The notes: generated by a model not told the origin, from the letters alone. 64,000 nucleotides of DNA from Desulfonema magnum (GCF_017377395.1 NZ_CP061800.1:3429633-3493632); one strand, 5' to 3'; shown: positions 24,255 to 62,202, counted from the stretch's first letter. Translations and numbers: made by a program.

Positions 24255-24914
24255 ATGGGCAGGTCATCAAAAATTTTAGTGGGTCTGATTGTTTTTTTTA
24301 TGAGCGGATCATTGGTGGTTTTTAATAACATCAACGGATATTACACTTTTATTGCCATGTGTCTGGCAATTTTATCTGTGTTTACGTTAATTGATTCTTT
24401 TTATTACGATATGTTAGAAGAACCCAATGAAAATTTTGAATTAACTGTGAAATCTATCTCCAAGCTCTTTTCTTTGGCTGCTTATTCCATAAAAATTCAT
24501 TCTGCCACGTTTGCGCCGAATATTTATTTTGATCCGAGGGTGTTTAATGATTTAAAAGCAGCAAAAAAACGAGGGGTGAAAATAGAGATTATTCTTTCCG
24601 AACCCGGGATCAATCCGAGATCTGTAAAACCCGATTCTCCCAAAAAGCAAGATAATTTCAGGATGTTTTGGTCCTGGGCAGATGCAGGAACCATATCCGT
24701 TATTCACCTAAATGAGAGGCAGTATCCGCATTTCATCATTGTTGATGATATTCATGTGCGAGTAGAAAAAAAGCACAAAATAACAATCGGTGATGACCCG
24801 AAACAGATAAAAAGAAAGGCGATAACCCGATACATAGATGTTGACACGGCAGAGAAACATTTAAAATCTTTTAATCTTCTTAAATCGTTAAATAAAATGC
24901 AGACTGCCATTTAA
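24255..24914 (+). CDS. hypothetical membrane-anchored protein (possible degenerate PLD-like segment PHFIIVDD)
   Basis: 219 aa, N-terminal TM helices, GGAGG RBS; no confident family assignment. Confidence 0.5.
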   Translation: MGRSSKILVGLIVFFMSGSLVVFNNINGYYTFIAMCLAILSVFTLIDSFYYDMLEEPNENFELTVKSISKLFSLAAYSIKIHSATFAPNIYFDPRVFNDLKAAKKRGVKIEIILSEPGINPRSVKPDSPKKQDNFRMFWSWADAGTISVIHLNERQYPHFIIVDDIHVRVEKKHKITIGDDPKQIKRKAITRYIDVDTAEKHLKSFNLLKSLNKMQTAI

Positions 24915-32995: not shown

Positions 32996-33910
32996 TCACT
33001 TTCCGGCAGGTTTCAGTTTCCAAAGCTTGGTGTTTCTGTAGATACCCGCTTCTGTGATGTGATAGCCCCCGACTTGCCGGCGTTTCATTTTTCCCAAGGT
33101 TCTGCTGAGTCTGATCTTCTGGCTTTTTTTACTGCCTTTGCCAAGATCAAACGAAATATCATTGTCAATGATCATCTGACGCAGATAATGCGAGTCAACC
33201 GCGTCCTCACCATATTTTTCCCACCACATATTGACAAAATCAAGAAAAAAGTCATTTTCTTTTTTCTGGTTCTCAGGCAGCGAACTCGGAGGAGGTGCTG
33301 AAATCCGGGCTTCAGAAAGATAACCGGGGCGGACAACCTCCAGAAAATTCACGCCTGTGGTCTCCTTTGTGATGCGGTTCGCTGTCAGCCTTGCCTGATG
33401 ATCATCTGTAATTCCTGCCAGATTAGCTGCCTCAATCGCCACTTTGAATCTTCTCACGCTCAGATCAAACTGATCTCCGGTGACATGACGCGCCTCAAGC
33501 TTTTCCTTCATATTGAAATAGTCTCTGACCATCTGCTTGTACAGTTGCCTGGCAAGCGGGGTTTGAAGGAGTTTGCAAAGAAGCGCATAGCCCTGACGGG
33601 AAAACAGATAAATATATTCACTGCGGTTAAGCGCGTTCTTTGTATAAAAATTCAGAAGAAAATCATATAATTGGTCGTTATCGTTCTGAACGATAACGGA
33701 TTTCAGGTTAAGAATGTCAACTTTTTCGTCAAACCAGTCAAGGTTTTTATTGATGACTTCATTAATGTGCATGAGTTCTCTTTCATGCAGTTCCGCAATT
33801 TGCTTTGCAAGAATACAGGGCTGATTGTCTCCGAACCCGCCGTAAATCTTTTTTACGGCATGATTGTTAATTGTCACAATTTCGTTACCCAACGTCAGTT
33901 CATTCATCAT
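32996..33910 (-). CDS. phage regulatory protein, Rha/ORF6N-like antirepressor N-terminal domain
   Basis: 304 aa; N-terminus VTINNHAVKKIYGGFGDNQPCILAKQIAELHERELMHINEVINKN fits the Rha/ORF6N pattern; GAGGAGA RBS. Family call is tentative. Confidence 0.5.
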   Translation of the reverse strand: MMNELTLGNEIVTINNHAVKKIYGGFGDNQPCILAKQIAELHERELMHINEVINKNLDWFDEKVDILNLKSVIVQNDNDQLYDFLLNFYTKNALNRSEYIYLFSRQGYALLCKLLQTPLARQLYKQMVRDYFNMKEKLEARHVTGDQFDLSVRRFKVAIEAANLAGITDDHQARLTANRITKETTGVNFLEVVRPGYLSEARISAPPPSSLPENQKKENDFFLDFVNMWWEKYGEDAVDSHYLRQMIIDNDISFDLGKGSKKSQKIRLSRTLGKMKRRQVGGYHITEAGIYRNTKLWKLKPAGK

Positions 33911-34567: not shown

Positions 34568-35074
34568 TCAATCAAAACCGATAATAACATTCTTGTTTTT
34601 AAAATGCGGCAGCAATGCCTCCAGGGACCCGCCCTTTTCTGCATGGGCAATTCGGATTTCATCGGCCAGCTCCAGAATGAGTCTGTTTCTTATCTCTGCC
34701 CGCGCCGAGGTTATCCATTTCACAGACGCGTCAAAAGGGGAAAGGATTAAAAGCCGGTTTTGTCCCAGAGCTGTTTTTATTTCCGGTTCCCATCGTTTTT
34801 TCATGCCCCGGGCCAATGCGAGAATCATGGGCTGTTTGCCTTTTGCGAGGATTTGAAACACATCCTTTTCTATCTGGGAATGAAAACATGACATAACGCA
34901 GTTGCCCTTTTTCCGCTGCTCAATGGCCCAGTCGTAAGCTTTTACGATCATCTCCGCGGGGCATTTGCGGGAGCAGAGAAACGCTGTTTTACGAACATTT
35001 AAGATCGCTTTGTTTCCGAGAAAATGTAAATCAGAGGGTTTCATTGGTGTTCCTGTGTTTAAACGAGTCTTCAT
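34568..35074 (-). CDS. DprA/Smf-like Rossmann (SLOG) domain protein, short stand-alone form
   Basis: 168 aa; colinear with the DprA core (…SCFHSQIEKDVFQ…ILALARGM… ~ SGLARGID block; RNRLILELADEIRIAHAEKGGSLEAL ~ RNRIIAGLS…SGSLITA). The start may be the internal Met at ~35044, which has an AGGAA RBS. Confidence 0.6.
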   Translation of the reverse strand: MKTRLNTGTPMKPSDLHFLGNKAILNVRKTAFLCSRKCPAEMIVKAYDWAIEQRKKGNCVMSCFHSQIEKDVFQILAKGKQPMILALARGMKKRWEPEIKTALGQNRLLILSPFDASVKWITSARAEIRNRLILELADEIRIAHAEKGGSLEALLPHFKNKNVIIGFD

Positions 35075-35103: not shown

Positions 35104-35565
35104 TCAACTATCCGGAGGATGCCAGCCAGCCATCACCCAGTAACTTCGGACCTTTAAAGGATCAGAACTCAGGCAGAGCGTCTCAACTGTGGCCCGCCCA
35201 GTCGGTGTCCGTCCGATAATACAAATACCATCCTCACTCCATCGGAAATGCTGAGACCATACCTGAATACGCGGGTTGAAAAGAGGGACAATCTGATGTG
35301 CTTCCGGATCCGATGATTCAGTTTTATTCCCCTTATGACGATTACAGAAAGGACATGCCAGCCATAAGTTGGATTCATCATCACTGCCCTGTTTCGAGAC
35401 AGGGATGATGTGTTTTGTAGCAGCAGGTTTGCAAGCCCCCGCCAAGCCCCGTGGGGGCGGCATATTTGTAGCAGCAGGTTTGCAAGCCCCCGCCAAGCCC
35501 CGTGGGGGCGGCATATTTGTAGCAGCAGGTTTGCAAGCCCCCGCCAAGCCCCGTGGGGGCGGCAT
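35104..35565 (-). CDS. HNH endonuclease domain protein whose N-terminus is array-D sequence (probably 5'-truncated/overrun)
   Basis: C-terminal HNH motif HIIPVSKQGSDDESNLWLACPFCNRHKGNK. The expected upstream CxxC zinc knuckle is absent. The first ~50 aa are (MPPPRGLAGACKPAATN)x3 translated from the 51-bp array. Confidence 0.6.
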   Translation of the reverse strand: MPPPRGLAGACKPAATNMPPPRGLAGACKPAATNMPPPRGLAGACKPAATKHIIPVSKQGSDDESNLWLACPFCNRHKGNKTESSDPEAHQIVPLFNPRIQVWSQHFRWSEDGICIIGRTPTGRATVETLCLSSDPLKVRSYWVMAGWHPPDS

Positions 35566-36745
35566 ATTTGTAGCAGCAGGTTTTCAAGCCCCCGCCAAGC
35601 CCCGTGGGGGCGGCATATTTGTAGCAGCAGGTTTGCAAGCCCCCGCCAAGCCCCGTGGGGGCGGCATATTTGTAGCAGCAGGTTTTCAAGCCCCCGCCAA
35701 GCCCCGTGGGGGCGGCATATTTGTAGCAGCAGGTTTTCAAGCCCCCGCCAAGCCCCGTGGGGGCGGCATATTTGTAGCAGCAGGTTTGCAAGCCCCCGCC
35801 CAGCCCCGTGGGGGCGGCATATTTGTAGCAGCAGGTTTGCAAGCCCCCGCCCAGCCCCGTGGGGGCGGCATATTTGTAGCAGCAGGTTTTCAAGCCCCCG
35901 CCAAGCCCCGTGGGGGCGGCATATTTGTAGCAGCAGGTTTTCAAGCCCCCGCCAAGCCCCGTGGGGGCGGCATATTTGTAGCAGCAGGTTTGCAAGCCCC
36001 CGCCAAGCCCCGTGGGGGCGGCATATTTGTAGCAGCAGGTTTGCAAGCCCCCGCCCAGCCCCGTGGGGGCGGCATATTTGTAGCAGCAGGTTTGCAAGCC
36101 CCCGCCAAGCCCCGTGGGGGCGGCATATTTGTAGCAGCAGGTTTTCAAGCCCCCGCCAAGCCCCGTGGGGGCGGCATATTTGTAGCAGCAGGTTTGCAAG
36201 CCCCCGCCCAGCCCCGTGGGGGCGGCATATTTGTAGCAGCAGGTTTGCAAGCCCCCGCCAAGCCCCGTGGGGGCGGCATATTTGTAGCAGCAGGTTTGCA
36301 AGCCCCCGCCAAGCCCCGTGGGGGCGGCATCTTTGTAGCAGCAGGTTTTCAAGCCCCCGCCAAGCCCCGTGGGGGCGGCATATTTGTAGCAGCAGGTTTG
36401 CAAGCCCTCGCCAAGCCCCGTGGGGGCGGCATATTTGTAGCAGCAGGTTTGCAAGCCCCCGCCCAGCCCCGTGGGGGCTGCATATTTGTAGCAGCAGGTT
36501 TGCAAGCCCCCGCCAAGCCCCGTGGGGGCGGCATATTTGTAGCAGCAGGTTTGCAAGCCCCCGCCAAGCCCCGTGGGGGCGGCATCTTTGTAGCAGCAGG
36601 TTTTCAAGCCCCCGCCAAGCCCCGTGGGGGCGGCATATTTGTAGCAGCAGGTTTGCAAGCCCTCGCCAAGCCCCGTGGGGGCGGCATATTTGTAGCAGCA
36701 GGTTTGCAAGCCCCCGCCCAGCCCCGTAGGGGCTGCATGTTCGCA
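35400..36745. repeat. tandem array D: ~26 copies of a 51-bp unit (AAGCCCCGTGGGGGCGGCATATTTGTAGCAGCAGGTTTGCAAGCCCCCGCC)
   Basis: Period 51 measured (GTAG at 35416 and 35467). The unit is a multiple of 3 and has a stop only in one plus frame, hence the many long spurious ORFs. Variant positions (TTTTCAAG, CCCAGCC, CATCTTTG) are scattered in a patchwork pattern. Right junction ...GCATGTTCGCATTACTACT. Confidence 0.95.
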
Positions 36746-36799
36746 TTACTACTGCCGGATTTGGCAATCTGCCAGGATTATGAAAGGCCATAATTTTTT

Positions 36800-37018
36800 T
36801 TAAGCGGCCTGATAAATTGCCGGACGGAAACAGGGTTTGGGAATCGGCCTGTTTTCTGAGATTGCAGCTTGAAGCCAGGCTGCCTTTGCCCTCAGCACTT
36901 CTTTCAGAGCGTCTTCCGGTGTCTCTCCGAATGCAGAGCAGTATTTCAAATCCGGTATGTCCGCGATATATCCTTCATCTTCCTCACTGTAAAATATGTT
37001 GATATGGTAATCTTTCAT
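36800..37018 (-). CDS. hicB: type II antitoxin HicB
   Basis: 72 aa MKDYHINIFYSEEDEGYIADIPDLKYCSAFGETPEDALKEVLRAKAAWLQ, HicB/UPF0150 fold pattern; 4-bp overlap with hicA. Confidence 0.8.
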   Translation of the reverse strand: MKDYHINIFYSEEDEGYIADIPDLKYCSAFGETPEDALKEVLRAKAAWLQAAISENRPIPKPCFRPAIYQAA

Positions 37019-37272
37019 ATATCTTCCTCCATGCTCAGATTATGGCGTTCTACAATCTGTAAAAATTGTTTTATCTGGTAGGGCTTTGTTTTGCCCTTAA
37101 TATCCTGAAGGTTTATCAGTTCAGGCACGTCAGGGTGTATAAATATATGATGACTGCCGCTGACACGGTTTAAATGAAAGCCGAAGGATTCAATACATGC
37201 CACGGCTTCTGAAAAATGAATATTTTTGCCCCCTGAGAGAATCTTTTGTAATATTTTCTGTTTCTTTGTCAT
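37015..37272 (-). CDS. hicA: type II toxin HicA (mRNA interferase)
   Basis: 85 aa; ...FGFHLNRVSGSHHIFIHPDVPELINLQ matches the HicA (YcfA) GSHHxFxHP signature. Confidence 0.8.
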   Translation of the reverse strand: MTKKQKILQKILSGGKNIHFSEAVACIESFGFHLNRVSGSHHIFIHPDVPELINLQDIKGKTKPYQIKQFLQIVERHNLSMEEDI

Positions 37273-37333
37273 TCTTTAATCTTCCTGTGCCTATCGTCCG
37301 GTCATATAAGAAAAGGACTGAAGAATCTCCTTC

Positions 37334-38008
37334 TTATAATCCTCTTCTTATCCGTTCATATAGTGTCTGAAAGCTGAACGTAACCGATTCGCCGTTTATC
37401 TTTTTATACGGTGGAAACGGCTGAATCAGTTTATCCGGTGATTCTTTAGTCTTGTATTCACTATATTCGTTTATCCGAAGCCAGTTTGAACCTTTTTCGC
37501 TTTGATCAAAATAATGTTCTGCATAAACCTGCGAACTCTTATTGATACAGTAAATGACGATATTTTCTTTACCCCTGTTTTCAAGTAATGCCCATACATC
37601 TCCTGAAAAATTCGGGTCATCCTTATAATACCATTGCTGGTTCAGGATAACAAGCTCCTGTTCAAACAGCGATTTAAACTTACTTCTCTGATAGTTAAGC
37701 GGTTTTAATACGTCATCTTTTCAGTAATAAACTCTGTCAAATACATTACCCCCGTATGATCTGCGGTGGGTCTCATAATGTCGGGAAATCAGGGCATAGG
37801 CATGATTGATGCTTTTGGCTTTCTCTTTTAAAGCAGTAATATTACATTCGCAGTCCGAAAGCTCGGCTTCTTTGGTACAGCGTAAATTAATATACAAGTC
37901 TTCTTTTAAACAGATTTCGACAAAGGAGCGCTGTTTACGGAGATACAGCGGCTTTTTTATGATACCGAGTTTCTTCGCATCTTCATTACGGGGGCTTATC
38001 TGAACCAT
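37334..38008 (-). pseudogene. hypothetical protein gene interrupted by an in-frame TGA at 37721-37723 (frame continues to TAA at 37334)
   Basis: MVQISPRNEDAKKLGIIKKPLYLRKQ...VFDRVYY[TGA]KDDVLKPLNYQRSKFKSLFEQELVILNQQWYYKDDPNFSG...TFSFQTLYERIRRGL; no recognisable family. Confidence 0.45.
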
Positions 38009-38079
38009 CAGAAAAGTATTTTCGGCTAAAAACAGCTTTTTGACTTCCCTCTCCAGAATCGCCAGCTTTTTTTGATCAG

Positions 38080-38220
38080 TTACACAAAAAAGGGAACAAT
38101 CAGATCGCCGACAGTGCCGTCTTCTAATTTAGGCAAATCCCCGCCGTAGAAAAATTTTAACTCTCCATTTACTACTTTCACAGGAATTTTGACGGTCTTT
38201 TTAAATGGATCCGGTGTCAT
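38080..38220 (-). CDS. small ORF (46 aa, MTPDPFKKTVKIPVKVVNGELKFFYGGDLPKLEDG...)
   Basis: Strong GGAGGAG RBS. Its reading continues into the 38008 ORF only after a frameshift, so it may be the 5' part of the same disrupted gene. Confidence 0.4.
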   Translation of the reverse strand: MTPDPFKKTVKIPVKVVNGELKFFYGGDLPKLEDGTVGDLIVPFFV

Positions 38221-38280
38221 GTCTCCTCCGATTTCCTTTTTTAAAGTGTTTCGTTGTTCTAAACATCTTCAGATACGGAC

Positions 38281-39760
38281 GGATATCCGCATGAGCAGCA
38301 GATTTGCAAGCCCCCGCCAAGCCCCGTGGGGGCGGCATATTTGTAGCAGCAGGTTTGCAAGCCCCGCCAAGCCCCGTGGGGGCGGCATATTTGTAGCAGC
38401 AGGTTTGCAAGCCCCCGCCAAGCCCCGTGGGGGCGGCATATTTGTAGCAGCAGGTTTGCAAGCCCCTGCCAAGCCCCGTGGGGGCGGCATATTTGTAGCA
38501 GCAGGTTTGCAAGCCCCCGCCAAGCCCCGTGGGGGCGGCATATTTGTAGCAGCAGGTTTGCAAGCCCCCGCCAAGCCCCGTGGGGGCGGCATATTTGTAG
38601 CAGCAGGTTTGCAAGCCCCCGCCAAGCCCCGTGGGGGCGGCATATTTGTAGCAGCAGATTTGCAAGCCCCCGCCCAGCCCCGTGGGGGCGGCATATTTGT
38701 AGCAGCAGGTTTGCAAGCCCCCGCCAAGCCCCGTGGGGGCGGCATATTTGTAGCAGCAGGTTTGCAAGCCCCCGCCAAGCCCCGTGGGGGCGGCATATTT
38801 GTAGCAGCAGGTTTGCAAGCCCCCGCCAAGCCCCGTGGGGGCGGCATATTTGTAGCAGCAGGTTTGCAAGCCCCCGCCAAGCCCCGTGGGGGCGGCATAT
38901 TTGTAGCAGCAGGTTTTCAAGCCCCCGCCAAGCCCCGTGGGGGCGGCATATTTGTAGCAGCAGGTTTTCAAGCCCCCGCCAAGCCCCGTGGGGGCGGCAT
39001 ATTTGTAGCAGCAGATTTGCAAGCCCCTGCCAAGCCCCGTGGGGGCGGCATATTTGTAGCAGCAGGTTTGCAAGCCCCTGCCAAGCCCCGTGGGGGCGGC
39101 ATATTTGTAGCAGCAGGTTTGCAAGCCCCCGCCAAGCCCCGTGGGGGCGGCATATTTGTAGCAGCAGGTTTGCAAGCCCCCGCCAAGCCCCGTGGGGGCG
39201 GCATATTTGTAGCAGCAGGTTTGCAAGCCCCCGCCAAGCCCCGTGGGGGAGGCATCTTTGTAGCAGCAGGTTTGCAAGCCCCCGCCAAGCCCCGTGGGGG
39301 CGGCATATTTGTAGCAGCAGGTTTGCAAGCCCCCGCCAAGCCCCGTGGGGGCGGCATATTTGTAGCAGCAGATTTGCAAGCCCCCGCCAAGCCCCGTGGG
39401 GGCGGCATATTTGTAGCAGCAGGTTTGCAAGCCCCCGCCAAGCCCCGTGGGGGCGGCATATTTGTAGCAGCAGGTTTTCAAGCCCCCGCCCAGCCCCGTG
39501 GGGGCGGCATATTTGTAGCAGCAGGTTTGCAAGCCCCCGCCAAGCCCCGTGGGGGCGGCATCTTTGTAGCAGCAGGTTTGCAAGCCCCCGCCCAGCCCCG
39601 TGGGGGCGGCATATTTGTAGCAGCAGGTTTGCAAGCCCCCGCCAAGCCCCGTGGGGGCGGCATATTCGCATTACTACTACAAATATGCCGCCCCTACGGG
39701 GCTTGGCCGGCCCGGTATGATGAATGCTACAAATATGCCGTCCCTACGGGACTTCTCAAA
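38281..39760. repeat. tandem array E: ~27 copies of the same 51-bp unit as array D, ending in two inverted partial units (39669-39760)
   Basis: Same unit, orientation and right-junction sequence (GCATATTCGCATTACTACT) as array D. Inverted terminal copies caaatatgccgcccctacggggcttggcc / caaatatgccgtccctacgggac. Confidence 0.95.
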
Positions 39761-39824
39761 CACGCTCTGAAAAAAGGATTGAAAAATCCGCTTCTTATAC
39801 GAAATCCGTGTAGCGAAATTATTA

Positions 39825-42800
39825 TTATTTCAACTCCTTCCCCATCCGATACTTGATATCGTAGTTGATAATGAAATCGAGTTCTTCCTCTGTGAAGCCG
39901 TAGTGCTGGGCGAGGACTTTGTCTATTTCGTCTATGATGGGTTTGGAATATTTTGGATATATACATTGAATTTTTAATTTGCCCCATTTTTTATAATACA
40001 TTTCTATCTCTTTTGAATGATGATTGAAATCATTCATCAATTTTTTCCTAAACTCTGAAAGCAGGCCAATTGTTTGTGAATTGGTTTTAGAAATATTAAC
40101 TTTCACTCCAAAAACTTCACGTTTATTTAAATTTCTACAGTCAGATCCAATTGTTAATAGCCAGAAAAAAAGTGAAGAATTTAAAATACAAAGGAATGCG
40201 TCACGAGATTTTTCGCCATTAAATGAAAGTGTTTTTAGTTCCGATGGTTCACGTTTATTTCCTGACTCATCAAATATTGATGGAATAAAATCTAAGACTT
40301 GAACAAAACCACTTAGTTTGCGTGTATAATATAATAGAGACGAAGAATGCGGATCAAGATAATGCTGCAATGTTTTTTTCTCTTTAATAACCTTGTCCAA
40401 AATTGACGATCCTACTCTACTACCTATTTTGGGTATCAAGCCATTCAGAATAAAATCATTACAAATTTCATAAGACAAGCAGTCAAATAAACAATAACGA
40501 ACCTCGGTATTCCATTTATTATATTTTGTAGAGTAAAGCATACCTTCTGTACATTTCTTTTTATGCAATAAGACTATTGACAAACGGATATGCTCTAAGC
40601 CTTCAAATAGCTTTCCCGGTCGATCATTATAGTTACTTATTATAACATCACCGTTGCTTTGCCACATTTTTTGAAGCTTGGAATACCTATCTGTGCAAAC
40701 AGACGCGACAGGTATAATGAGACCAATTTTTCCAGATTCATTGCATATATTAACAGATTGTTCATAGCAATACGCATATAAATTGGCACAGCTTTCAGTA
40801 AGATAACTTTTTACCGTGTACTTATTCCTTATCGTTTTGTACTCCACATACGGCGGATTCCCAATAATCACATCAAACCCGCCTCTGTCCGCCACAATGC
40901 TGTAGAACTCCGCAAACCAGTGAAAGGGCTGATGAGATGCCAGCCATTTCTCATATTGCCTTTTCTGCTTTTCCGAGTCAATATTATAAACAGAAGCAAG
41001 ATAGGTATTCAGCTTGTCATTGAGAGCGCCAAGTCTTTTTGTCACTTCCTGTTTGGCGGCCTTGAAACTCTCATTGTTCATATCTTCAATGAGTTGAGCA
41101 TCTTTAAACCTTACAAACGCCTTGCTGGTCAGCCCGCACTCTTCCTTGAATTCTTCCAGTTTTTCCTGAGCAAACATCCCCTCTCTGTCTCTGACAGCCT
41201 CCATCAGCTCCGTTTCCGTGGCAAACCCCACGAGCGTATTTCCGGACCGAATATTAAAATCAATATCCGGAAGCGGCTCCAGGCCATAATTTGGCTTGCG
41301 GGGATTCATATCCACCGAGGCAACAATCCTGAGAAACAGCCTCAGCCTGGCGATTTCCACCGCCTCCTTCATAATATCCACGCCATAGAGATTGTTCAAA
41401 ATAACAGACTTGCAGATAAAATACTCCCGGCTCGGATGATCCGCAGCATTGACCTCCTTCAGCACCTTTTCAAAACACTTATCTTTTTTCGAGCTTTCCT
41501 CGGCAAACTGCTCCATCCGCTCAATACAGCCCTCATACATCGGCTCAAGAATATTCAGTGCGGCAAAGAGAAACGCCCCGGAGCCGCAGGTGGGGTCTAA
41601 AATTGAAAGCGGAGGACGATCTTTCTCGTTCGTATTTTGCGGACGCGTATAACCGGCAACCGTCTTATAAAATTCCCTGATAAGTTTCGGATCATCCGTA
41701 TTTGCAATCAGATCCGCTGTGAACTGGCGGATATTCAGATTATAAGTGATAAAATCATTGATTTCAGTGATCTCCCCGTTTTCAATCTTCTGCCTCACTT
41801 CCCCATAACGGGATCTGCGCTCAATCGTCTCCCGCCAGATTTCAGTGGGCAGGGCATACGCTTCAGGCGCGGGCGTGTTCCAGTGTTTGCGGCGTTCCAG
41901 CAAATCCGGCGCGGACGTGTCCAGCCCCACAGCAATGTTCTCAGGCAGGTCCAGTTCCACACCTTTTTTCACAGCATCATAAATATAAGCATCCCCGCTG
42001 GTTTTCAACATCTGCCATATCTCGCCATCTGGCTTGAACGGTTTTGCATACCTGCGTCTCACCGCATCAAAAACAAAGGGGATAATACAATTTTTGCCAA
42101 TATATTCCGTAATATCCTCTTTGGTGTAGTACGCGCCCATTGCAGCCCGGTCATTAATATATTTCTCAAAAATATATCCGATAACATCCGGGTTGATATC
42201 CTTGCCGCTGGCCTCGGCACGCATATCCAAAAGCCAGTTCCATTGATCAAAAAAATTGAAAACCCGCTCAAAAACCGCATCTCTGATCTGGATATCATCA
42301 AACAGAAGTTCCAGCACATGCACATCAAACAGCCCCCCGTTCAGATAAGGAATACGGCCCAGTTCCACCGACACAACCCGCCTGTCCTCGGGCTTGCCAA
42401 GCCCCTGATGAAACAGCTCAAGCAGAAATGTCCGGTAAAAATTGTAAAACTGATTTTCCCCGGCCTTTTCCCGGGTTTCCCTCAGCTTATTCTGAAGATA
42501 ATTCACATCCTGATTCAGATACCCTTTTTTCTGGATAAAATAGCAGAACATCAGGCGGCTGAACATCACAGACACATACCACTGCTTGTTTTTATTCTCC
42601 TTATCCGGCAACGCGTCATCAATCCCCTCAACAGATTGCAGAAAAGCCGTGTGATGTTTCTTGAACTCAGTATAGAATTTTTTAGTCACCTTTTCCGAAT
42701 TCTTTGCAAAATTCTCCATGACCCGTGCCTTCACATCCACAAGGGTGACACTTTCCTCCTCGTCCAGCGTGAACAAAAGTCCCTTCAGCCTTTGGAAAAG

Positions 42801-43172
42801 CCCCTCACAGTCCTGATGAGAATAATACGAAACCTCCCGGACCTGTCTGGGTTTGCCCTGTTCTCTGAGCGCAAGCTGCCAGACCTGTCGGGACCGGGCA
42901 GCATCCGTATAAATGATAAGATGCTCAAAATACGTTTTCGTGACAACATGCTCAATCTGCCTGCGGACACGGCTTAACGGAACATTGCCATTGCTCTCAG
43001 GCGGACAATACAGAACAACAAACCCCTTTTTCTCAACCACCCCCGCAAGCTCGAAAACCTCATTTCCCATCGCCACAGGCAGTGAATTATTAAAATGATC
43101 CCATCCCAGCTCATTAAAAAGCCTTTTAAAATCAAACGCATTAAGATACCGAGTGAATTTTTTCTTATTCAT
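39825..43172 (-). CDS. large N6-adenine DNA methyltransferase, PglX/Eco57I-like (gamma-class)
   Basis: 1115 aa; SAM motif I LDPTCGSGAFLFAALN and catalytic motif IV FDVIIGNPPYV. ~450 aa N-terminal and ~350 aa C-terminal regions are unassigned. Confidence 0.85.
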   Translation of the reverse strand: MNKKKFTRYLNAFDFKRLFNELGWDHFNNSLPVAMGNEVFELAGVVEKKGFVVLYCPPESNGNVPLSRVRRQIEHVVTKTYFEHLIIYTDAARSRQVWQLALREQGKPRQVREVSYYSHQDCEGLFQRLKGLLFTLDEEESVTLVDVKARVMENFAKNSEKVTKKFYTEFKKHHTAFLQSVEGIDDALPDKENKNKQWYVSVMFSRLMFCYFIQKKGYLNQDVNYLQNKLRETREKAGENQFYNFYRTFLLELFHQGLGKPEDRRVVSVELGRIPYLNGGLFDVHVLELLFDDIQIRDAVFERVFNFFDQWNWLLDMRAEASGKDINPDVIGYIFEKYINDRAAMGAYYTKEDITEYIGKNCIIPFVFDAVRRRYAKPFKPDGEIWQMLKTSGDAYIYDAVKKGVELDLPENIAVGLDTSAPDLLERRKHWNTPAPEAYALPTEIWRETIERRSRYGEVRQKIENGEITEINDFITYNLNIRQFTADLIANTDDPKLIREFYKTVAGYTRPQNTNEKDRPPLSILDPTCGSGAFLFAALNILEPMYEGCIERMEQFAEESSKKDKCFEKVLKEVNAADHPSREYFICKSVILNNLYGVDIMKEAVEIARLRLFLRIVASVDMNPRKPNYGLEPLPDIDFNIRSGNTLVGFATETELMEAVRDREGMFAQEKLEEFKEECGLTSKAFVRFKDAQLIEDMNNESFKAAKQEVTKRLGALNDKLNTYLASVYNIDSEKQKRQYEKWLASHQPFHWFAEFYSIVADRGGFDVIIGNPPYVEYKTIRNKYTVKSYLTESCANLYAYCYEQSVNICNESGKIGLIIPVASVCTDRYSKLQKMWQSNGDVIISNYNDRPGKLFEGLEHIRLSIVLLHKKKCTEGMLYSTKYNKWNTEVRYCLFDCLSYEICNDFILNGLIPKIGSRVGSSILDKVIKEKKTLQHYLDPHSSSLLYYTRKLSGFVQVLDFIPSIFDESGNKREPSELKTLSFNGEKSRDAFLCILNSSLFFWLLTIGSDCRNLNKREVFGVKVNISKTNSQTIGLLSEFRKKLMNDFNHHSKEIEMYYKKWGKLKIQCIYPKYSKPIIDEIDKVLAQHYGFTEEELDFIINYDIKYRMGKELK

Positions 43173-43194
43173 AATTTTCAGCTTTCAATTTATC

Positions 43195-43400
43195 AGTTTA
43201 ACCTCGTTAACCTCGTTAACCTCGTTAATCTCATTCCCACGCTTCGCGTGGGAATGCAGAAGGGACGCTTCGCGTCCCGTGGCTGGACGGATTTGCGTCC
43301 GGCCGCCGGACCGATTCGGGACGCGAAGCGTCCGCCGGACCGATTCAGGACGCGAAGCGTCCGCCCTGCATTCCCACGCGAAGCGTGGGAACGAGAGAAA
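43195..43400. promoter_or_regulatory. GC-rich nested palindrome cluster between the helicase and methyltransferase genes
   Basis: (CCTCGTTAA)x3, perfect hairpins CATTCCCACGC-TTC-GCGTGGGAATG and GGGACGC-TTC-GCGTCCC, 2x 32-bp direct repeat GCCGGACCGATTCGGGACGCGAAGCGTCCGCC, and a closing CATTCCCACGCGAAGCGTGGGAA. A related hairpin lies at 58195-58225. Confidence 0.5.
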
Positions 43401-43415
43401 CGAGAGAACTAATTC

Positions 43416-46400
43416 TCAATTCTCAATTATTCCCATGGAGCAGACAATCTGGGGATTTTTATTCTTTGTCTCTGTATTGCTGATGATGCAGAGTTTTCCA
43501 TCTTCGCGCAGGGTGATGACAAGATTTATGAGCGCCTCATCAGAAATGCCTGTTTTCAATTGGCGGCTGAGGGTTTCCCTGGCATATTCCCGCAGCGGAT
43601 ATTTATAAATATCCTCAACAGCTTTTTTCAGCGAATCCGTGACAAACAGAGGATCGGCATTTTTCTCAACATATTGCGAAAGCCGCATATACATGCGGTA
43701 ACGTGCCGCGGTTTTTCTGCCAAGCTGCCCCCCGATGCTGTCCTCCACTTTTTTGATATGCCTGACACCGAACTCAACCAGCTTGTGATGATTTTCAGAC
43801 CTGGGCAGGGCAGGCACATCTGGCTCACATTTTACAGCTTTCAGAATTTCAAACTGGGACTGGGTGACAATATTCCTGTCCTCATCCACCCACGCGAGCA
43901 TATCATTATCATACGCAGTTCTTGTGTAAACCACAGCCCCGGTTCTGGTTCCTTTGCCAGCTTTTTTGGCCGCGTAAGCAACATCAGGCAGGTCCGGGAT
44001 CATGTTTTTCAGTTTCGGATTCGCGTCTGTTGCATTTTTCCATATCTGATACGCATACGAGGCAAGATCAATCTCAATGTCTTCCTCATCATCAAAAATC
44101 CCTGCTTTTTCATTATACAAATCCCTTATGTTTATGGGATCGCCGTCAAAAAACGTTTCATCAGACCCGATGGTCTCGGCATTTTCCCGGATTCGCTGCC
44201 GCAGTCTTGCCCGGAGGTTGATGATGTTTTCAATACCATCTTCCGGCAGAAACGAATAGCAGAGAATCTCAGGCGAGTGCTGACCGATCCGGTCAATTCT
44301 GCCTGCCCGCTGAATCAGGCGGATGATGGCCCACGGAAGATCATAATTCAGGACAATATGGGCGTCCTGCAAATTCTGACCTTCGCTGAGAACATCCGTG
44401 GTGATCAGCACCCGTATCTCCTGAGATTCAGGGATTTTCTCGAATTTCTCATTGCTTTCCGGGCTGAACCGGTGAGCAAAAGCCGTGGGGTTTTCCGTGT
44501 CGCCGGTCACACATGCCACCCTGTCAACGCCTCTGTCCTTCAATGCGCTGAACAAGTAATGAGCCGTATCAGAAAACTGTGTGAATATCAGCACTTTGTC
44601 ATTTTTATGCGTTTCAGCACAAAGTTTGTAAAGTGCGTTGAGCTGGCGGTCGTCCGCGATGTTCCAGTTTTTTGCGATATTGAGTATTCTGAGCAGTGCG
44701 CGGCTGTCTGCCTCAAGATGTTTTTTAAGTTTCCGAGAAAAAAGGCTGCTTCTGATCCAGTCGTATTTTTGGGCCTGTCTGTCAAAAAGATACATGTGAA
44801 ATGCTTCTGCATGATGCATATATTCCTGCTCGGAAAACAACAAGTCCATATTATTTTTCTCTTCTGTGTCCTCATCCGCATACATAAACGCATCAATCAG
44901 ACCTGCCTCCTGCTTGCCAACGGGAAAGGGTTTGTCATTTTCTATGGCATATAGGAACAGATAATTTCTCAGAATATGCCGGCTCACAGACAGCAAAAAC
45001 GAGTACCCGCTGCTTTCAAGGCGTTTGAAAAGATTGGTCCGGGCAAATCCTTTCAGCCTTGCCCCGGCTCTGCCCAGGTTTTTTTGGATTCTGACCTCTT
45101 TGTCCGTGGGAATCAGCTCGGTTTTTTTTGACTGATACTGATCCTGTCCCAGACCATAGCGGGGAAGGTTCAGACTGTCAATGAGATCAACAACGGTTTC
45201 AGAGTAAAGCCTTGCATACTGATCGGTCGGATCATCCGGATCAAAATTATATTCCACTTTTCTGGGAACACGCTCCGGAAAATAGGAAGTTGTGCCATCA
45301 GGGAACAACAGATATTTCCGGCCGTCATGCTCGTCAATTTTCGTATAATTGTCTTTGATGAAACTGCGGGTTCGTCTCACCAGGAACAAACGCATAAGCT
45401 CGTTCCAGTCCTCGGAAAAAAGGCTGTTTTCAAACGCGGCAAGGCTGTTTTCACTGACCTGATGATTTGCCAGAAACTGAACACGGCCCCCCTCGCTTTC
45501 AATGAGACGTTCCGGACGGATTCCCAGATTTTCATCCTCATTCATAAACAGCCTCAGTTGGCTGGAAAGGTCAAGATAAGATTTGTTGTATGGCGTGGCA
45601 GTGAGCAATATCACCTTGCTGTCATTGAGGTGGATATATTCATAAACCGCACGGTACCGCTTGCCCTGACGATTTCTCAGGTTATGGCTTTCATCTATGA
45701 TGACCAGCCGGTACCGCCTTTCGCGAGGGAGTTTTGACTGTGCCTGGGTGACGGACAGCACCTTTGCCCGGAGCTGATATTTGTGCACATAATCCTCCCA
45801 CATGACCACAAGGTTTTTGGGACTGATGATCAGGGTTTCAAGAAAGAAATCCTCCTCAAAGACCTTGGCAAGGGCGGCCGCGGTAATGGTCTTTCCCAGG
45901 CCCACCACATCGCCGATTATCACACCGCCTCTTTTATGGAGATGATGGGCCGCGACTTTTACCGCATTGGCCTGATAAGGCAGCAGCGCGTGTTTGAACT
46001 CACGAGTGAGGTTAAATTCCGATATCCCCGCGCGGGCTTCTCTGGACAAATGGTAGGCAATCTTCAAATAAATATGATACGGCGGTATGAGATTTTCCGA
46101 AGCCCAGCTGGTATCTATGATTTCGGCAAGTTCTTTTGTGATGTCAATGCACCAGCGATCTTCCCAGCGGTCCTGAAACCATCGGGACAGTTTCATCGCG
46201 GCATCCTGCTCAACAACATCTGTGTTGAGTTCGCCCTGTCTGGACACGCCCGCAAGGGTCAGATTGCTGCTCCCCAGGAAACCAATGATCGGGCTGTTGT
46301 AATCTTCCCGATAAATCAGATACAGTTTGGCATGAAGGGGATGACGGAGATGCAGTTTTACAATGACTTTGCCTGATTTTAACTGCTGCGAAAGCCTGCG

Positions 46401-46775
46401 AAGGGCTTTTTCATCCTGATTGTTGGGGATCCCGATGGTGAGCTGCTCCCGCAGATTTCTTGCCAGCAGCTTTTTTAACTTCAATGCTTCTGCATTGTCC
46501 AAAGTGTTCCCGTCATTATCCTCTGAAAAATGCGCACGGAGCAGCTCGTCAGAAAGCCTCTGCATACCGATCAGGACCCGGCAATGATAGAAATGATCAT
46601 CATCAAATGCTTCAGGGAGATAATCCCCGGGGAGATTTTCGACGTTTTTATATAACTTTGACCAGCCCCGAAGATTGAAATAGCCAATGCAGAAATCCGC
46701 ACGTCTGGCCCTGTCCAAGGTGTTGTTCAGACCAGTTTCCAAAAATTTTTCAATATTGTCAAAGATGGTGGGCAT
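43416..46775 (-). CDS. fusion protein: N-terminal PLD-family nuclease domain + SNF2-family (SF2) helicase/ATPase
   Basis: 1119 aa; PLD HKD motif HAKLYLIYREDYNSPIIGFLGSSNLTLAG; SNF2 motifs GDVVGLGKTITAAAL (I), VIIDESHNLRN (II), LLTATPYNKSYLDL (III), LIQRAGRIDRIGQ (VI). AGGAGC RBS. Confidence 0.85.
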   Translation of the reverse strand: MPTIFDNIEKFLETGLNNTLDRARRADFCIGYFNLRGWSKLYKNVENLPGDYLPEAFDDDHFYHCRVLIGMQRLSDELLRAHFSEDNDGNTLDNAEALKLKKLLARNLREQLTIGIPNNQDEKALRRLSQQLKSGKVIVKLHLRHPLHAKLYLIYREDYNSPIIGFLGSSNLTLAGVSRQGELNTDVVEQDAAMKLSRWFQDRWEDRWCIDITKELAEIIDTSWASENLIPPYHIYLKIAYHLSREARAGISEFNLTREFKHALLPYQANAVKVAAHHLHKRGGVIIGDVVGLGKTITAAALAKVFEEDFFLETLIISPKNLVVMWEDYVHKYQLRAKVLSVTQAQSKLPRERRYRLVIIDESHNLRNRQGKRYRAVYEYIHLNDSKVILLTATPYNKSYLDLSSQLRLFMNEDENLGIRPERLIESEGGRVQFLANHQVSENSLAAFENSLFSEDWNELMRLFLVRRTRSFIKDNYTKIDEHDGRKYLLFPDGTTSYFPERVPRKVEYNFDPDDPTDQYARLYSETVVDLIDSLNLPRYGLGQDQYQSKKTELIPTDKEVRIQKNLGRAGARLKGFARTNLFKRLESSGYSFLLSVSRHILRNYLFLYAIENDKPFPVGKQEAGLIDAFMYADEDTEEKNNMDLLFSEQEYMHHAEAFHMYLFDRQAQKYDWIRSSLFSRKLKKHLEADSRALLRILNIAKNWNIADDRQLNALYKLCAETHKNDKVLIFTQFSDTAHYLFSALKDRGVDRVACVTGDTENPTAFAHRFSPESNEKFEKIPESQEIRVLITTDVLSEGQNLQDAHIVLNYDLPWAIIRLIQRAGRIDRIGQHSPEILCYSFLPEDGIENIINLRARLRQRIRENAETIGSDETFFDGDPINIRDLYNEKAGIFDDEEDIEIDLASYAYQIWKNATDANPKLKNMIPDLPDVAYAAKKAGKGTRTGAVVYTRTAYDNDMLAWVDEDRNIVTQSQFEILKAVKCEPDVPALPRSENHHKLVEFGVRHIKKVEDSIGGQLGRKTAARYRMYMRLSQYVEKNADPLFVTDSLKKAVEDIYKYPLREYARETLSRQLKTGISDEALINLVITLREDGKLCIISNTETKNKNPQIVCSMGIIEN

Positions 46776-46848
46776 GAGTTGCTCCTGGTATCAGGTTTGA
46801 TAGAAAAGGACGTGAATTCAGGTAAATCCCTGTTTTCATGTTTTCATT

Positions 46849-47775
46849 TCAGCATTCCTTGTGGCTAATGTTCGGGCTGCTGAGATTACTGATGGTATTT
46901 TTTCCATAAATATGACCCACGAACCGAATCAGTGCATAAAGAACCAAAACAGGTATGATGACCGTCTGAAGAAGAAAAACAATAATCAGATTCATGGTGT
47001 ATGTGGCATACTTTGATATTTTGTCCTTCAGAAAAGATATCTTTTTTTTAATATCAACAATTTCTTTTGTGTTTTCATACATTGTTTTCAAGGTATCCAG
47101 ATAACCCGGATCATCTGCTTTGCTTTTATCATCTTGTTGAGCCTGACTTGTGTCCTTGATTTCACGACTGACTTCTTCCAGGGACTGAACAGATTCGGTA
47201 TATTTTTTTTTCAGAAAAAGATTGTATGTTTTTTCACTGACAATCGCGGTTGCCGGTATGCAAAACCGGATTACCACGGACACAAGTATCAGTTTATAAC
47301 CCGCGGACACCAAATTTATTTTTGAAAATCGGGACATCCAAATTCCAATAAATATGATCACCATGGAAAAAGACAGTAAAATTTTGAAGCCAAACCATGT
47401 TCCCATCTCCATGAGAATTTTTTGGATACCCAACGACGTGATACTGACCAGCATGACCCAGGAAAAACGCTCCACCAGATCATTCACCGGGTCCAATGCT
47501 TCTCCCACAGCCAGCTGAACCCCGATCCCTGCCGGAGAAACCGCAATATCCGTACCCTGAGCCACAGAAATGACACCGTTTATGCCCCTGACAATTGCAA
47601 AGGTATAAATGGCTCTTTTAATGGCTTCATCAAAATAAATATTTCCTTTTTCATCCAACTCCTTGAAAAATTTTTTTTGAAACAAAGCATCAAGAAGCGA
47701 TGTATATGACAATACACCGATAACAAGCACGACCGCACTCAGCAACACTTTCTTATGTATCTGTTTCAATTGCAT
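46849..47775 (-). CDS. hypothetical multi-pass membrane protein, first gene of the helicase/methyltransferase block
   Basis: 308 aa, ~5 TM helices plus a K/E-rich cytoplasmic coiled segment; AGGAGGA RBS; 74 bp upstream of the PLD-SNF2 gene on the same strand. Confidence 0.5.
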   Translation of the reverse strand: MQLKQIHKKVLLSAVVLVIGVLSYTSLLDALFQKKFFKELDEKGNIYFDEAIKRAIYTFAIVRGINGVISVAQGTDIAVSPAGIGVQLAVGEALDPVNDLVERFSWVMLVSITSLGIQKILMEMGTWFGFKILLSFSMVIIFIGIWMSRFSKINLVSAGYKLILVSVVIRFCIPATAIVSEKTYNLFLKKKYTESVQSLEEVSREIKDTSQAQQDDKSKADDPGYLDTLKTMYENTKEIVDIKKKISFLKDKISKYATYTMNLIIVFLLQTVIIPVLVLYALIRFVGHIYGKNTISNLSSPNISHKEC

Positions 47776-51820: not shown

Positions 51821-52162
51821 TTAAGGGATCGCCAGAACTATTTTTAATGCTTTTGAGACTTCCTGCATTTTGTTTTGTGAAATTGTACCCATTTTTTGAA
51901 CAAATCTTGTTTTTGACACTGAGCGTATCTGAAAAGTATCAATAGCGGAATTCTTAATTAAACCATTATGTTGGTTTGGTATCAGCTTAACCATCCACGG
52001 AGCTATTTCATAGCGATCTTTCCAATCTGTCAAAGGGAGAATTACTTTCAGAGGCAGAATGCCCACAGCATCGTCGTTTATAATAACAGCAGGACGAGTT
52101 TTTTTGATTTCAGCGCCAACTGTCGGATCTAAATTTATTAGCCAGATTTCCCCTCTATACAT
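51821..52162 (-). CDS. mazF: MazF/PemK-family type II toxin (mRNA interferase)
   Basis: 113 aa MYRGEIWLINLDPTVGAEIKKTRPAVIIN... matches the PemK/MazF N-terminal signature; 8-bp overlap with the upstream antitoxin. Confidence 0.85.
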   Translation of the reverse strand: MYRGEIWLINLDPTVGAEIKKTRPAVIINDDAVGILPLKVILPLTDWKDRYEIAPWMVKLIPNQHNGLIKNSAIDTFQIRSVSKTRFVQKMGTISQNKMQEVSKALKIVLAIP

Positions 52163-60860: not shown

Positions 60861-60945
60861 GATGAAACTTTTGATTTTTGGTTCAAAATGTCATAACTAC
60901 TCTCAGAATAAATATTTATCAACAATTATAACAGGAAGGACGGTT

Positions 60946-62202
60946 ATGACTAAAAAATCAGACACCCCGATTATTTCAGTAATGCATCCCGTTTGTTGCG
61001 GACTGGACGTTCACAAGAATATTATTTCAGCATGTCTTATTACTCTGAATCCCCTTGGCTCGCCGCAATATGAAGTGAGGGAATTCCCGACTTTTACAGA
61101 CAGCCTTTTCCTTTTAAGGGACTGGCTGACCGACAATAATTGTCCGACAGTTGCAATGGAAAGTACAAGTGTGTATTGGCGTCCGGTTCACAATATCCTT
61201 GAAGGACATCTGGATGTTGTCCTGGTAAATGCGCGCCATATAAAAAATGTTCCCGGCAGAAAGACGGATACCGAGGACAGCAGATGGCTTGCCAATCTCC
61301 TTCGCCACGGGCTTGTGAAAGGCAGTTTTATTCCGGCAAAGGAAGTGAGACAATGGCGTGACCTGACAACGCTTCGGAAAAATTACACACAGACTCTCGG
61401 AGATTACAAGAGGCGTGTTCATAAACTGTTCGAGACCGCCAATATCAAAATCAGTTCTGTGGTGACCGATCTGTTCGGAGTGACAGGACGTAACCTGATC
61501 AGTCTCCTTTGTGACGAAGATGCGGATTTAAGCCTTGAAAATATTGAAAAATGTGCGAAAGGAAGTCTCGGTTCCAAAAGTGCGGAACTTCATCGCAGTA
61601 TTCAGGGTTTTTTTGAAGATCACCATCGTTTTCAGTTAAAACTGCTTATGGATACAATTGAGGCAACGGAGCGGAATATTAAATCCGTAACTGCCCGTCT
61701 TGCCAGGCTTATGAGGCCTCATCAGGAAGTTTTGGATCGTCTGGACGAAGTATACGGGATTAACACAGTGGCCGGTCAGTCAGTGCTCAGTCATATAGGA
61801 TTCACACTGGAAGAATTCGGAAATGAGGCTGCTTTCTGTTCCTGGGCAGGACTTTGTCCCGGAAATAATGAAAGTGCCGGCAAGCGTAAAAGCGGCAGGT
61901 CCCCGGTCCGAAATCATCCCTTTAAAACAGTCATGGTTGAAATTGCATGGTCTGCCATTAAGAAGAGGGACTCATATTATAAGGACAAATATTATCGTAT
62001 AAAATATCGGCGCGGAGCCAAAAAAGCTGTTGTCGCAGTTGCTCACAGCATAGCAAAGGGAATTTATCATATAATAAAATACGGAGAATCTTTTGAGGAT
62101 CTGGGTAAAGGATATCTTTCCGGCAAAAATCAGGAAAAAAAGATAAACAGACTAAAAAAACAGGCCGCACAGTTAGGATATGACCTGGTTGCTTCCGCTT
62201 AA
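60946..62202 (+). CDS. IS110-family transposase (DEDD/RuvC-like N-domain + Transposase_20 C-domain)
   Basis: MTKKSDTPIISVMHPVCCGLDVHKNII...AMESTSVYW...; C-terminal ...WAGLCPGNNESAGKRKSGR...; start set at ATG 60946 with GGAAGGA RBS (ORF track starts at 60862). Confidence 0.9.
   Translation: MTKKSDTPIISVMHPVCCGLDVHKNIISACLITLNPLGSPQYEVREFPTFTDSLFLLRDWLTDNNCPTVAMESTSVYWRPVHNILEGHLDVVLVNARHIKNVPGRKTDTEDSRWLANLLRHGLVKGSFIPAKEVRQWRDLTTLRKNYTQTLGDYKRRVHKLFETANIKISSVVTDLFGVTGRNLISLLCDEDADLSLENIEKCAKGSLGSKSAELHRSIQGFFEDHHRFQLKLLMDTIEATERNIKSVTARLARLMRPHQEVLDRLDEVYGINTVAGQSVLSHIGFTLEEFGNEAAFCSWAGLCPGNNESAGKRKSGRSPVRNHPFKTVMVEIAWSAIKKRDSYYKDKYYRIKYRRGAKKAVVAVAHSIAKGIYHIIKYGESFEDLGKGYLSGKNQEKKINRLKKQAAQLGYDLVASA

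Follow-up and report, generated by a model that had tools for sequence, protein, structure and literature searches.

A PLD-SNF2 helicase-nuclease and its partner methylase in Desulfonema magnum as a probable minimal ATP-dependent restriction-modification-like operon with a frequent DprA-like third gene

A 64,000-nucleotide stretch of the Desulfonema magnum genome (GCF_017377395.1, NZ_CP061800.1:3429633-3493632; hereafter the window, from whose first letter all positions are counted) carries two consecutive minus-strand genes, one for a 1119-residue protein that fuses a phospholipase D (PLD)-type nuclease domain to a SNF2 ATPase (43416-46775; the helicase) and one for a 1115-residue N6-adenine methylase (39825-43172). 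Together with a frequent third gene, encoding a 168-residue DprA/Smf-like protein (34568-35074, minus strand), these two core genes probably constitute a self-contained, minimal, ATP-dependent restriction-modification (RM)-like defence operon that resembles Type III, Type ISP and MANTIS systems. The operon is widespread and is catalogued only as a 'Type IIG' enzyme and a 'helicase-related protein'. An earlier note on the window had grouped the two large genes with a gene for a 308-residue membrane protein (46849-47775), and the three co-directional minus-strand open reading frames (ORFs) do lie at these coordinates. Its observation proved largely real but mis-bounded: the helicase-methylase pair stands as a module, the membrane protein falls outside it, and the conserved DprA-like gene had been missed. 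The resemblance that it saw to a Res-like translocase-nuclease (here with a PLD nuclease) joined to a Mod-like methylase, and its reading of an RM-like module, receive inferential support.

Among 185,579 genomes, each representing one species, at least 594 were found to carry a relative of the helicase, with orthology checked for part of the 594, and 80 loci from more than 20 phyla were retained. In 80 of the 81 informative species-level loci, again spanning more than 20 phyla, the helicase is directly followed by a methylase orthologue in the same orientation, and the usual gap between the two genes in orthologous loci is 2-60 bp. When every ORF from all loci was clustered without bias as a conserved-neighbour test, only three families emerged as genuinely conserved: the helicase, the methylase and the small DprA-like protein. 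Helicase homologues from Bacteroidota, Desulfobacterota, Planctomycetota and others show 62-74% identity; the order helicase-then-methylase recurs on plasmids of Actinomycetota, Cyanobacteriota and Thermodesulfobacteriota, and it is kept in an archaeal version of the pair that is 24% identical. The divergent pairs still contain Eco57I/MmeI-type methylases with the same N-terminal 370 residues. This patchy distribution, with more than 60% identity across phyla and occurrences on plasmids and viral contigs, looks like the result of horizontal transfer.

Distant proteins with the same fusion of an HKD motif, the PLD signature, to SNF2 (24-28% identical) are encoded on plasmids of Halorubrum, Nostoc, Allomeiothermus and Haladaptatus (loci L091, L093, L094 and L175), where they too adjoin large methylases labelled 'Type IIG' that belong to other clusters, so the partnership of an HKD-SNF2 protein with a methylase is general, extending to cyanobacteria, Thermales and haloarchaea. 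Some of these four loci have the opposite gene order or contain one or two additional small genes. The weaker plasmid matches were other methylase-linked HKD-SNF2 loci or an Escherichia coli locus with SNF2, DUF4391, methylase and ResIII genes, and not DUF499 systems; the E. coli locus (plasmid NZ_CP101235.1, 3254-12300) is a four-gene block of SNF2-related, DUF4391, site-specific methylase and DEAD/DEAH (Res-like) helicase genes. In a Candidatus Scalindua locus (L002, 11347-14542) an intact helicase is followed by a fragmented methylase, consisting of an 84-residue N-terminal piece, opposed ORFs and a 543-residue C-terminal piece, and in a Verrucomicrobiia locus (L046) the helicase has no methylase downstream; both are possibly decayed or orphaned copies.

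The two core proteins also vary together. In Mantel tests the helicase correlated with residues 1-320 of the methylase (r = 0.64) and with residues 321-800 (r = 0.53), values reached in 0 of 999 permutations, whereas its correlation with the methylase target-recognition domain (TRD) was 0.07 and was reached in 73 of 999. By this measure the helicase and methylase co-evolve while the TRD varies independently.

The helicase consists of an N-terminal PLD domain (approximately residues 100-205), a SWI2/SNF2 ATPase (approximately 260-870) and a conserved, unannotated C-terminal region (870-1119). Pfam assigned PLDc_2/RE_NgoFVII (residues 121-204), SNF2-rel_dom, ResIII and Helicase_C to it, which bears out the fusion that the earlier note had described, and the motifs that the note had read from it are present: a single HKD motif (HAK...D...GSSN), GLGKT and DESH, to which TATP can be added. 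Among 80 orthologues H148, K150, D158, S169 and N171 of the PLD site, the GxGKT, DESH, TATP and QN motifs, and R823, R826 and R829 are 97-100% invariant. Because the catalytic residues of both domains are invariant, both the PLD and the SNF2 activities are under selection. PADLOC holds no model for the family to which the helicase belongs; the best PADLOC match, 'C3a139 HKD+Snf2', scored only 167 bits and gave no strong match among six related proteins scanned, and the lower matches, to the DrmD, BrxH, HmaA and DpdE models, fell on the generic ATPase part. Against NCBIfam the helicase remained below cut-off, with 135.8 bits for DISARM_DrmD (cut-off 610) and 152 bits for 'phospholipD_antiphage' (cut-off 1100), and Pfam found in it no recognisable domain for reading modified bases. 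An AlphaFold2 model of the helicase was of low confidence (predicted local distance difference test, pLDDT, of 61), and the Foldseek matches of this model, all of them Snf2-family translocases (SWR1, RapA, SRCAP and CHD), support the designation 'Snf2-family motor' alone.

The methylase comprises an N-terminal domain (N-domain; residues 1-150), a helical spacer, a gamma-class N6-adenine methylase domain, a hypervariable TRD and a conserved C-terminal tail. The assignment to PglX/Eco57I-like gamma-class enzymes that the earlier note had made was confirmed: Pfam matched Eco57I, MmeI_Mtase and MmeI_hel, and motif I (DPTCGSGAF, residues 526-534, within the DPTCGSGAFL noted earlier) precedes motif IV (NPPY, 772-775), with AYYT near residue 348 and the TRD at the C-terminus. 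In an alignment of 61 orthologues motifs I and IV show no variation, residues 920-1080 are hypervariable and the last 35 residues are conserved. The PADLOC model PDLC03628 (REase_MTase_IIG) matched the methylase over its full length with 1223 bits, and DrmMI matched with 88 bits; in NCBIfam the BREX-1 PglX model (BREX_1_MTaseX) gave 64.6 bits against a cut-off of 500. A single-sequence search of the PDB with the methylase returned no match, and a profile search reached only PglX/TaqI methylase motifs and the MmeI spacer. The N-domain is predicted to fold as alpha-beta-beta-beta-alpha-beta, with a pLDDT of about 90 for residues 1-110, and Foldseek found no significant match for it; Pfam found no MmeI_N in the methylase. 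Across the 61 orthologues the acidic/acidic/lysine triad of PD-(D/E)xK nucleases is not conserved in this domain, and the residues of positions 1-150 that are at least 97% invariant are all hydrophobic, glycine or proline. Given the missing triad, we read the N-domain as apparently an inactivated nuclease fold.

The target-recognition region (approximately residues 800-1080; 39930-40775, minus strand) is marked by a sharp fall in G+C content, to 29-35% overall and 14-40% at third codon positions, compared with approximately 45-50% and 50-60%, respectively, in residues 1-800 of the methylase. Its mean pairwise identity among orthologues is 23%, versus 48-53% for the rest of the protein. The region was probably imported by recombination, and its composition suggests that a low-G+C donor recently supplied the specificity domain; the lack of co-evolution with the helicase and the foreign composition in D. 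magnum together point to domain swapping. The D. magnum TRD is 51% identical to that of the Synechocystis methylase Slr6050 and at most 47% identical to those of 60 other loci, the mean over all pairs being the 23% given above.

A homologue of the DprA-like gene lies downstream of the methylase on the same strand in 37 of the 51 genome loci that have 3 kb or more of flanking sequence, to which this count was confined, and in 8 of 9 loci on IMG/VR viral contigs, which served as an independent set. The distance between the two genes ranges from 22 bp to 4.5 kb in other loci and is 4.7 kb in D. magnum. Pfam DNA_processg_A matched 31 of 33 members of the family, and the PADLOC models for PsyrA and ShosA matched 33 and 10 of the 33, respectively. 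We found no earlier description of a DprA-like companion in such an operon in the searchable literature.

The homologous pair of Synechocystis PCC 6803, on plasmid pSYSX (43696-51129), connects the family to published work. Its helicase is 46.7% and its full-length methylase 50% identical to the D. magnum proteins, and a VapC toxin gene with a small upstream ORF, presumably the antitoxin of a vapBC-like pair, lies between them. The methylase is Slr6050 (M.Ssp6803IV), to which GA(m6A)GGC, where m6A is N6-methyladenine, was credited by elimination and REBASE; segregation of an slr6050 knock-out failed, the authors read the methylase as essential for viability, and the helicase is nowhere mentioned (PMC6105098). 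GAAGGC can be marked on one strand only, because its complement, GCCTTC, contains no adenine, which is the situation of Type III, ISP, BREX and MANTIS systems. If a cognate restriction activity is present, failure to segregate is what one would expect, and the upstream PLD-SNF2 helicase (SGL_RS01585) may explain it.

The D. magnum copy is intact, but a palindromic element and 4.7 kb of cargo have inserted into it. The D. magnum neighbourhood was taken from the window alone, and within it the surroundings are as the earlier note had described them: two tandem arrays, hicA and hicB, an HNH gene and a palindrome between the large genes. The genes are not as tightly spaced as it had held, the 243-bp helicase-methylase gap (43173-43415) being an inserted palindrome, near-perfect over approximately 170 nt, whose RNA fold has a dG of -152 kcal/mol (z = -13). 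Short tandem repeats flank it, TTAACCTCG in three copies on one side and CGAGAGAA in two copies on the other. The window contains the palindrome only once, and none of the 87 loci compared has it; it looks like an insertion of the miniature inverted-repeat transposable element (MITE) or repetitive extragenic palindrome (REP) type, not a conserved part of the system, and it could act on the transcript by terminating or stabilising it.

The slot that separates the methylase from the DprA-like gene (35104-39824) differs in its contents among loci. In D. magnum it holds, all on the minus strand, the HNH gene (35104-35565), hicB (36800-37018), hicA (37015-37272) and an unannotated 95-residue ORF (37721-38008), together with two 51-bp tandem arrays of 26 copies each (35414-36738 and 38294-39666). 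The arrays lie on either side of hicAB; they are 97% identical and rich in G+C, and several frames are open on each strand. They have no spacers and are thus not CRISPR-like, and the first approximately 50 codons of the HNH ORF extend into the first array. In other loci the slot holds deaminase plus HATPase_c_4 (six loci), SoFic, the YhcG/DUF1016 nuclease, MTaX1-HNH, RhuM-Fic, AAA_15/21 ATPases, a Macro-domain protein, putAbiC or an IS200 transposase, and we count this defence-type cargo beside the methylase in favour of a defence function.

The multi-pass membrane protein (46849-47775, minus strand) had been counted as a member of the module, and this did not hold. None of the 82 distinct related loci that formed the set for neighbour and membrane-protein comparisons contains a homologue of it, and the homologues known from Desulfonema limicola and from two metagenome contigs have unrelated housekeeping genes as neighbours; for these reasons we regard it as a mere flanking gene. 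It matched nothing in Pfam or PADLOC, and a SLATT_5 match of 17 bits (cut-off 60) was rejected as meaningless. Its family is large (3466 database proteins at E ≤ 0.001, with no Pfam domain), and the named matches, mainly from Desulfobacterales and relatives, are solitary genes in varied contexts. The ORFs scanned in the rest of the window encode chemotaxis, polysaccharide synthesis and other housekeeping functions and some toxin-antitoxin genes. Other mobile or conflict genes nearby are an ORF6N-domain protein gene (32996-33910, minus strand), a MazF/PemK toxin gene (51821-52162, minus strand) and an IS110-family transposase gene (60862-62202, plus strand). A 219-residue ORF (24255-24914, plus strand) in a low-G+C stretch (35-40%) has a weak, below-cut-off match to PLDc_2 (E = 9e-5).

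We infer restriction activity for the pair, and with it a scheme of recruitment, translocation and cleavage, an orientation rule and a role for the DprA-like protein. The 1115-residue protein would be the modification and specificity subunit, whose C-terminal TRD would read a short asymmetric site and whose gamma-class domain would methylate one adenine on one strand. Its N-domain, with a restriction-endonuclease-like fold and a lost catalytic triad, could be a docking or communication module for the partner. The 1119-residue protein would be the restriction subunit: a methylase bound at an unmethylated site would recruit or license the SNF2 motor, which would translocate along double-stranded DNA using ATP. 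Since each polypeptide has one HKD motif, a PLD active site would need two copies, brought together either in a constitutive dimer, for which the dimeric PLD-SF2 (superfamily 2) effectors MtsD and SauUSI are mechanistic precedents (preprint 10.64898/2026.09.23.753747), or by two converging complexes as in Type III and ISP enzymes, after which the DNA would be broken. One-strand methylation would imply that host DNA is spared just after replication through a two-site or orientation rule. To judge by PsyrA and ShosA, the DprA-like protein may act as a regulator linked to single-stranded DNA and RecA, or as a safety catch.

Several points weigh against this explanation. For every member of the family, restriction or phage defence is a putative activity. 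In D. magnum co-expression is uncertain because a strong palindrome lies between the core genes and the third is 4.7 kb away, and approximately 27% of loci, Synechocystis and the examined plasmid loci among them, have no third gene. The likeness of the helicase to SauUSI and MtsD is one of domain architecture only, since its structural model is poor and SauUSI was not among the top Foldseek matches of that model. For Synechocystis, the authors themselves describe the motif assignment as being without genetic and biochemical proof (PMC6105098), and the failure to segregate could have another cause, a vapBC pair sitting between the two genes. Finally, E83 and H84 of the methylase N-domain are 90-97% conserved and could possibly form a non-canonical nuclease site.

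This last point bears on an alternative in which the methylase is a true single-chain Type IIG cutter and the PLD-SNF2 protein an independent or auxiliary enzyme, for example a SauUSI-like Type IV or back-up nuclease. We consider it unlikely: the full-length match to the Type IIG model, the MmeI-like overall architecture and E83/H84 speak for it, but the nuclease triad and MmeI_N are both missing, the near-obligate pairing and co-evolution with the helicase would not be expected of independent systems, and the helicase has no recognisable modified-base reader. The REBASE label of Type IIG was, moreover, once wrongly given to PglX proteins (PMC12707154). We give the same low standing to a toxin-antitoxin or abortive-infection module in which, in the manner of PsyrTA, the helicase-nuclease is a toxin restrained by the DprA-like protein, and methylation is secondary or serves addiction. 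The PsyrA and ShosA matches of the DprA-like family fit such a module, as do the unsegregated Synechocystis knock-out (PMC6105098) and the action of ShosA, a DprA-like antitoxin that works through binding of single-stranded DNA and RecA (PMC12961424). The gene for the putative antitoxin is nevertheless absent from approximately 27% of loci, while the methylase is nearly always present, and a hypervariable TRD is the signature of sequence-specific marking of self and non-self.

A little less likely again is a function outside defence, in which the methylase would regulate epigenetically and the SNF2-PLD protein would take part in DNA repair or remodelling. In its favour is the reading of the Synechocystis methylase as viability-essential (PMC6105098); the patchy, seemingly horizontal spread of the pair, its hypervariable and compositionally foreign TRD and its setting among defence-type cargo and toxin-antitoxin genes argue otherwise. 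Least probable of all, to the point of being hardly credible, is a reduced member of DISARM class 1, BREX or the BREX-related MANTIS systems, with the rest of its genes in other parts of the genome. This reading draws on the weak profile matches to DrmD, DrmMI, PglX and BrxH and on the PLD-SF2 architecture shared with MtsD (preprint 10.64898/2026.09.23.753747). Every one of these scores is, however, far under the family cut-off; PglZ, BrxC, DUF499, DUF3780 and DrmA, DrmB and DrmC are absent among the ORFs scanned in the window, no DISARM, BREX or MANTIS partner gene is among the conserved neighbours of the 82 loci, and plasmids and viral contigs carry the pair by itself.

Beyond the RM-like operon, which we favour, lies a bolder proposal that we put forward tentatively, with slightly more doubt than belief: the pair and its DprA-like companion would form a distinct and very widespread minimal class of ATP-dependent restriction in which a dead-nuclease methylase/TRD protein directly loads or licenses an HKD-SNF2 motor-nuclease without the AAA+ loader of MANTIS and BREX, the DprA-like protein tunes self-damage, and the operon doubles as a docking site for defence genes. 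If this is true, many 'Type IIG' database entries are modification/specificity subunits of two-component motor enzymes. Should the RM-like operon model hold, annotation would need correction, because tools in the style of DefenseFinder and PADLOC and models derived from REBASE would label such loci 'Type IIG' and overlook the helicase. The pair would then be the simplest known case of a methylase-specificity protein directing a separate PLD-SNF2 motor-nuclease. It would thereby offer a tractable minimal model, relevant to MANTIS, BREX and DISARM, of how methylation status is signalled to an ATP-driven effector, whether a dead nuclease domain acts as a coupling module, and how one-strand methylation is reconciled with avoidance of self-cleavage. 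The DprA-like gene and the cargo slot may link restriction, RecA/single-stranded-DNA sensing and the assembly of defence islands, and Synechocystis PCC 6803 is a ready genetic system for the pair.

The earlier note had called the block undescribed, which is right in part. No canonical, classified system fits, nothing in NCBIfam exceeds its cut-off, and PADLOC is without a model of the helicase family; in the searchable literature we found no paper that names or tests the two- or three-gene system. The methylase family, on the other hand, is already represented by the PADLOC Type IIG model, the methylation motif of Slr6050 has been published (PMC6105098), and a PLD+SNF coding sequence beside such a methylase is a passing table entry in PMC9881135.

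Measured against known systems, the D. magnum pair lacks at least one tested defining feature of each of DISARM, BREX, Type III, Type ISP, Hma and Type IIG. The earlier suggestion of a DISARM class 1 system collapsed into two proteins is rejected. DISARM class 1 does possess, in DrmD, DrmMI and DrmC, a SNF2 helicase, an N6-adenine methylase and a PLD protein, respectively, but in D. magnum PLD and SNF2 are one protein, the DrmD model reached 136 bits where the cut-off is 610, and DrmA and DrmB (DUF1998), which define the system, are missing from the ORFs scanned in the window, as the note had rightly observed. The pair also occurs without DrmA, DrmB or DrmC in 80 loci from more than 20 phyla, where the one further conserved neighbour is the DprA-like gene. 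The methylase differs from BREX PglX in having no BrxA, BrxB, BrxC, BrxL or PglZ partners. As in Type IIG enzymes, methylase and TRD share one polypeptide, and an active endonuclease domain was not found in it. The nuclease motif of MmeI (Type IIL/IIG) is D-x9-ExK; the D. magnum methylase has no such conserved motif and is partnered by a PLD-SNF2 protein. Hma (HmaA SNF2-nuclease, HmaB methylase and HmaC ATPase) has in common with the pair a SNF2-nuclease fusion, a methylase and use as an insertion hotspot for defence genes (PMC11232893). The nuclease of HmaA is, however, a C-terminal PD-(D/E)xK nickase accompanied by a third, ATPase gene, whereas that of D. magnum is an N-terminal PLD; a conserved third ATPase is absent from the 82 loci, and the HmaA model scored 74.8 bits on the helicase.

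The DprA-like protein resembles PsyrA and ShosA in being a stand-alone DprA/Smf Rossmann domain. The partner toxin in PsyrTA is also a helicase, of the RecQ-like kind. The D. magnum-type protein, however, accompanies a methylase-directed helicase-nuclease, is absent from about one quarter of loci and is often separated from its partners by cargo. SauUSI (Type IV) and CglI/NgoAVII likewise couple a PLD nuclease to an ATP-driven SF2 motor for restriction, but SauUSI has its own modified-cytosine reader, attacks methylated DNA and has no methylase partner, and in CglI/NgoAVII the PLD and helicase are separate proteins and the methylase is a C5 enzyme. With the Type III and ISP enzymes (EcoP15I and LlaGI) the pair shares an ATP-dependent motor and nuclease directed by a methylase/TRD that marks one strand, and their logic of communication between sites before cleavage would apply to it as well. 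Their nuclease is of the PD-(D/E)xK or Mrr kind, whereas in D. magnum a PLD/HKD domain stands at the N-terminus of a SNF2-family motor; Type III Mod is beta-class, in contrast to the gamma-class, MmeI-like D. magnum methylase, and Type ISP enzymes are one polypeptide in place of two.

By analogy, we regard MANTIS (Gao_RL, BREX-related type 2; MtsABCD) as the closest working analogue. In that system the sites are set by an m6A methylase, and restriction, with a preference for DNA between inverted sites, is the task of MtsD, a dimeric, SauUSI-like PLD-SF2 effector (preprint 10.64898/2026.09.23.753747; PMC12839542 for the classification). MANTIS requires a DUF499 AAA+ loader, MtsA, and a small MtsB, both absent from the D. 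magnum window and the related loci; its methylase is of the MtsC type, whereas that of D. magnum is an Eco57I/MmeI/PglX-type protein of 1100 residues with its own TRD, and D. magnum has a DprA-like third gene instead. What the two have in common is a specificity methylase that marks, or in D. magnum would mark, one strand of a short asymmetric site with m6A, and a separate effector with a single N-terminal HKD PLD domain fused to an SF2/SNF2 ATPase, a feature of MtsD to which we liken the D. magnum helicase by its architecture.

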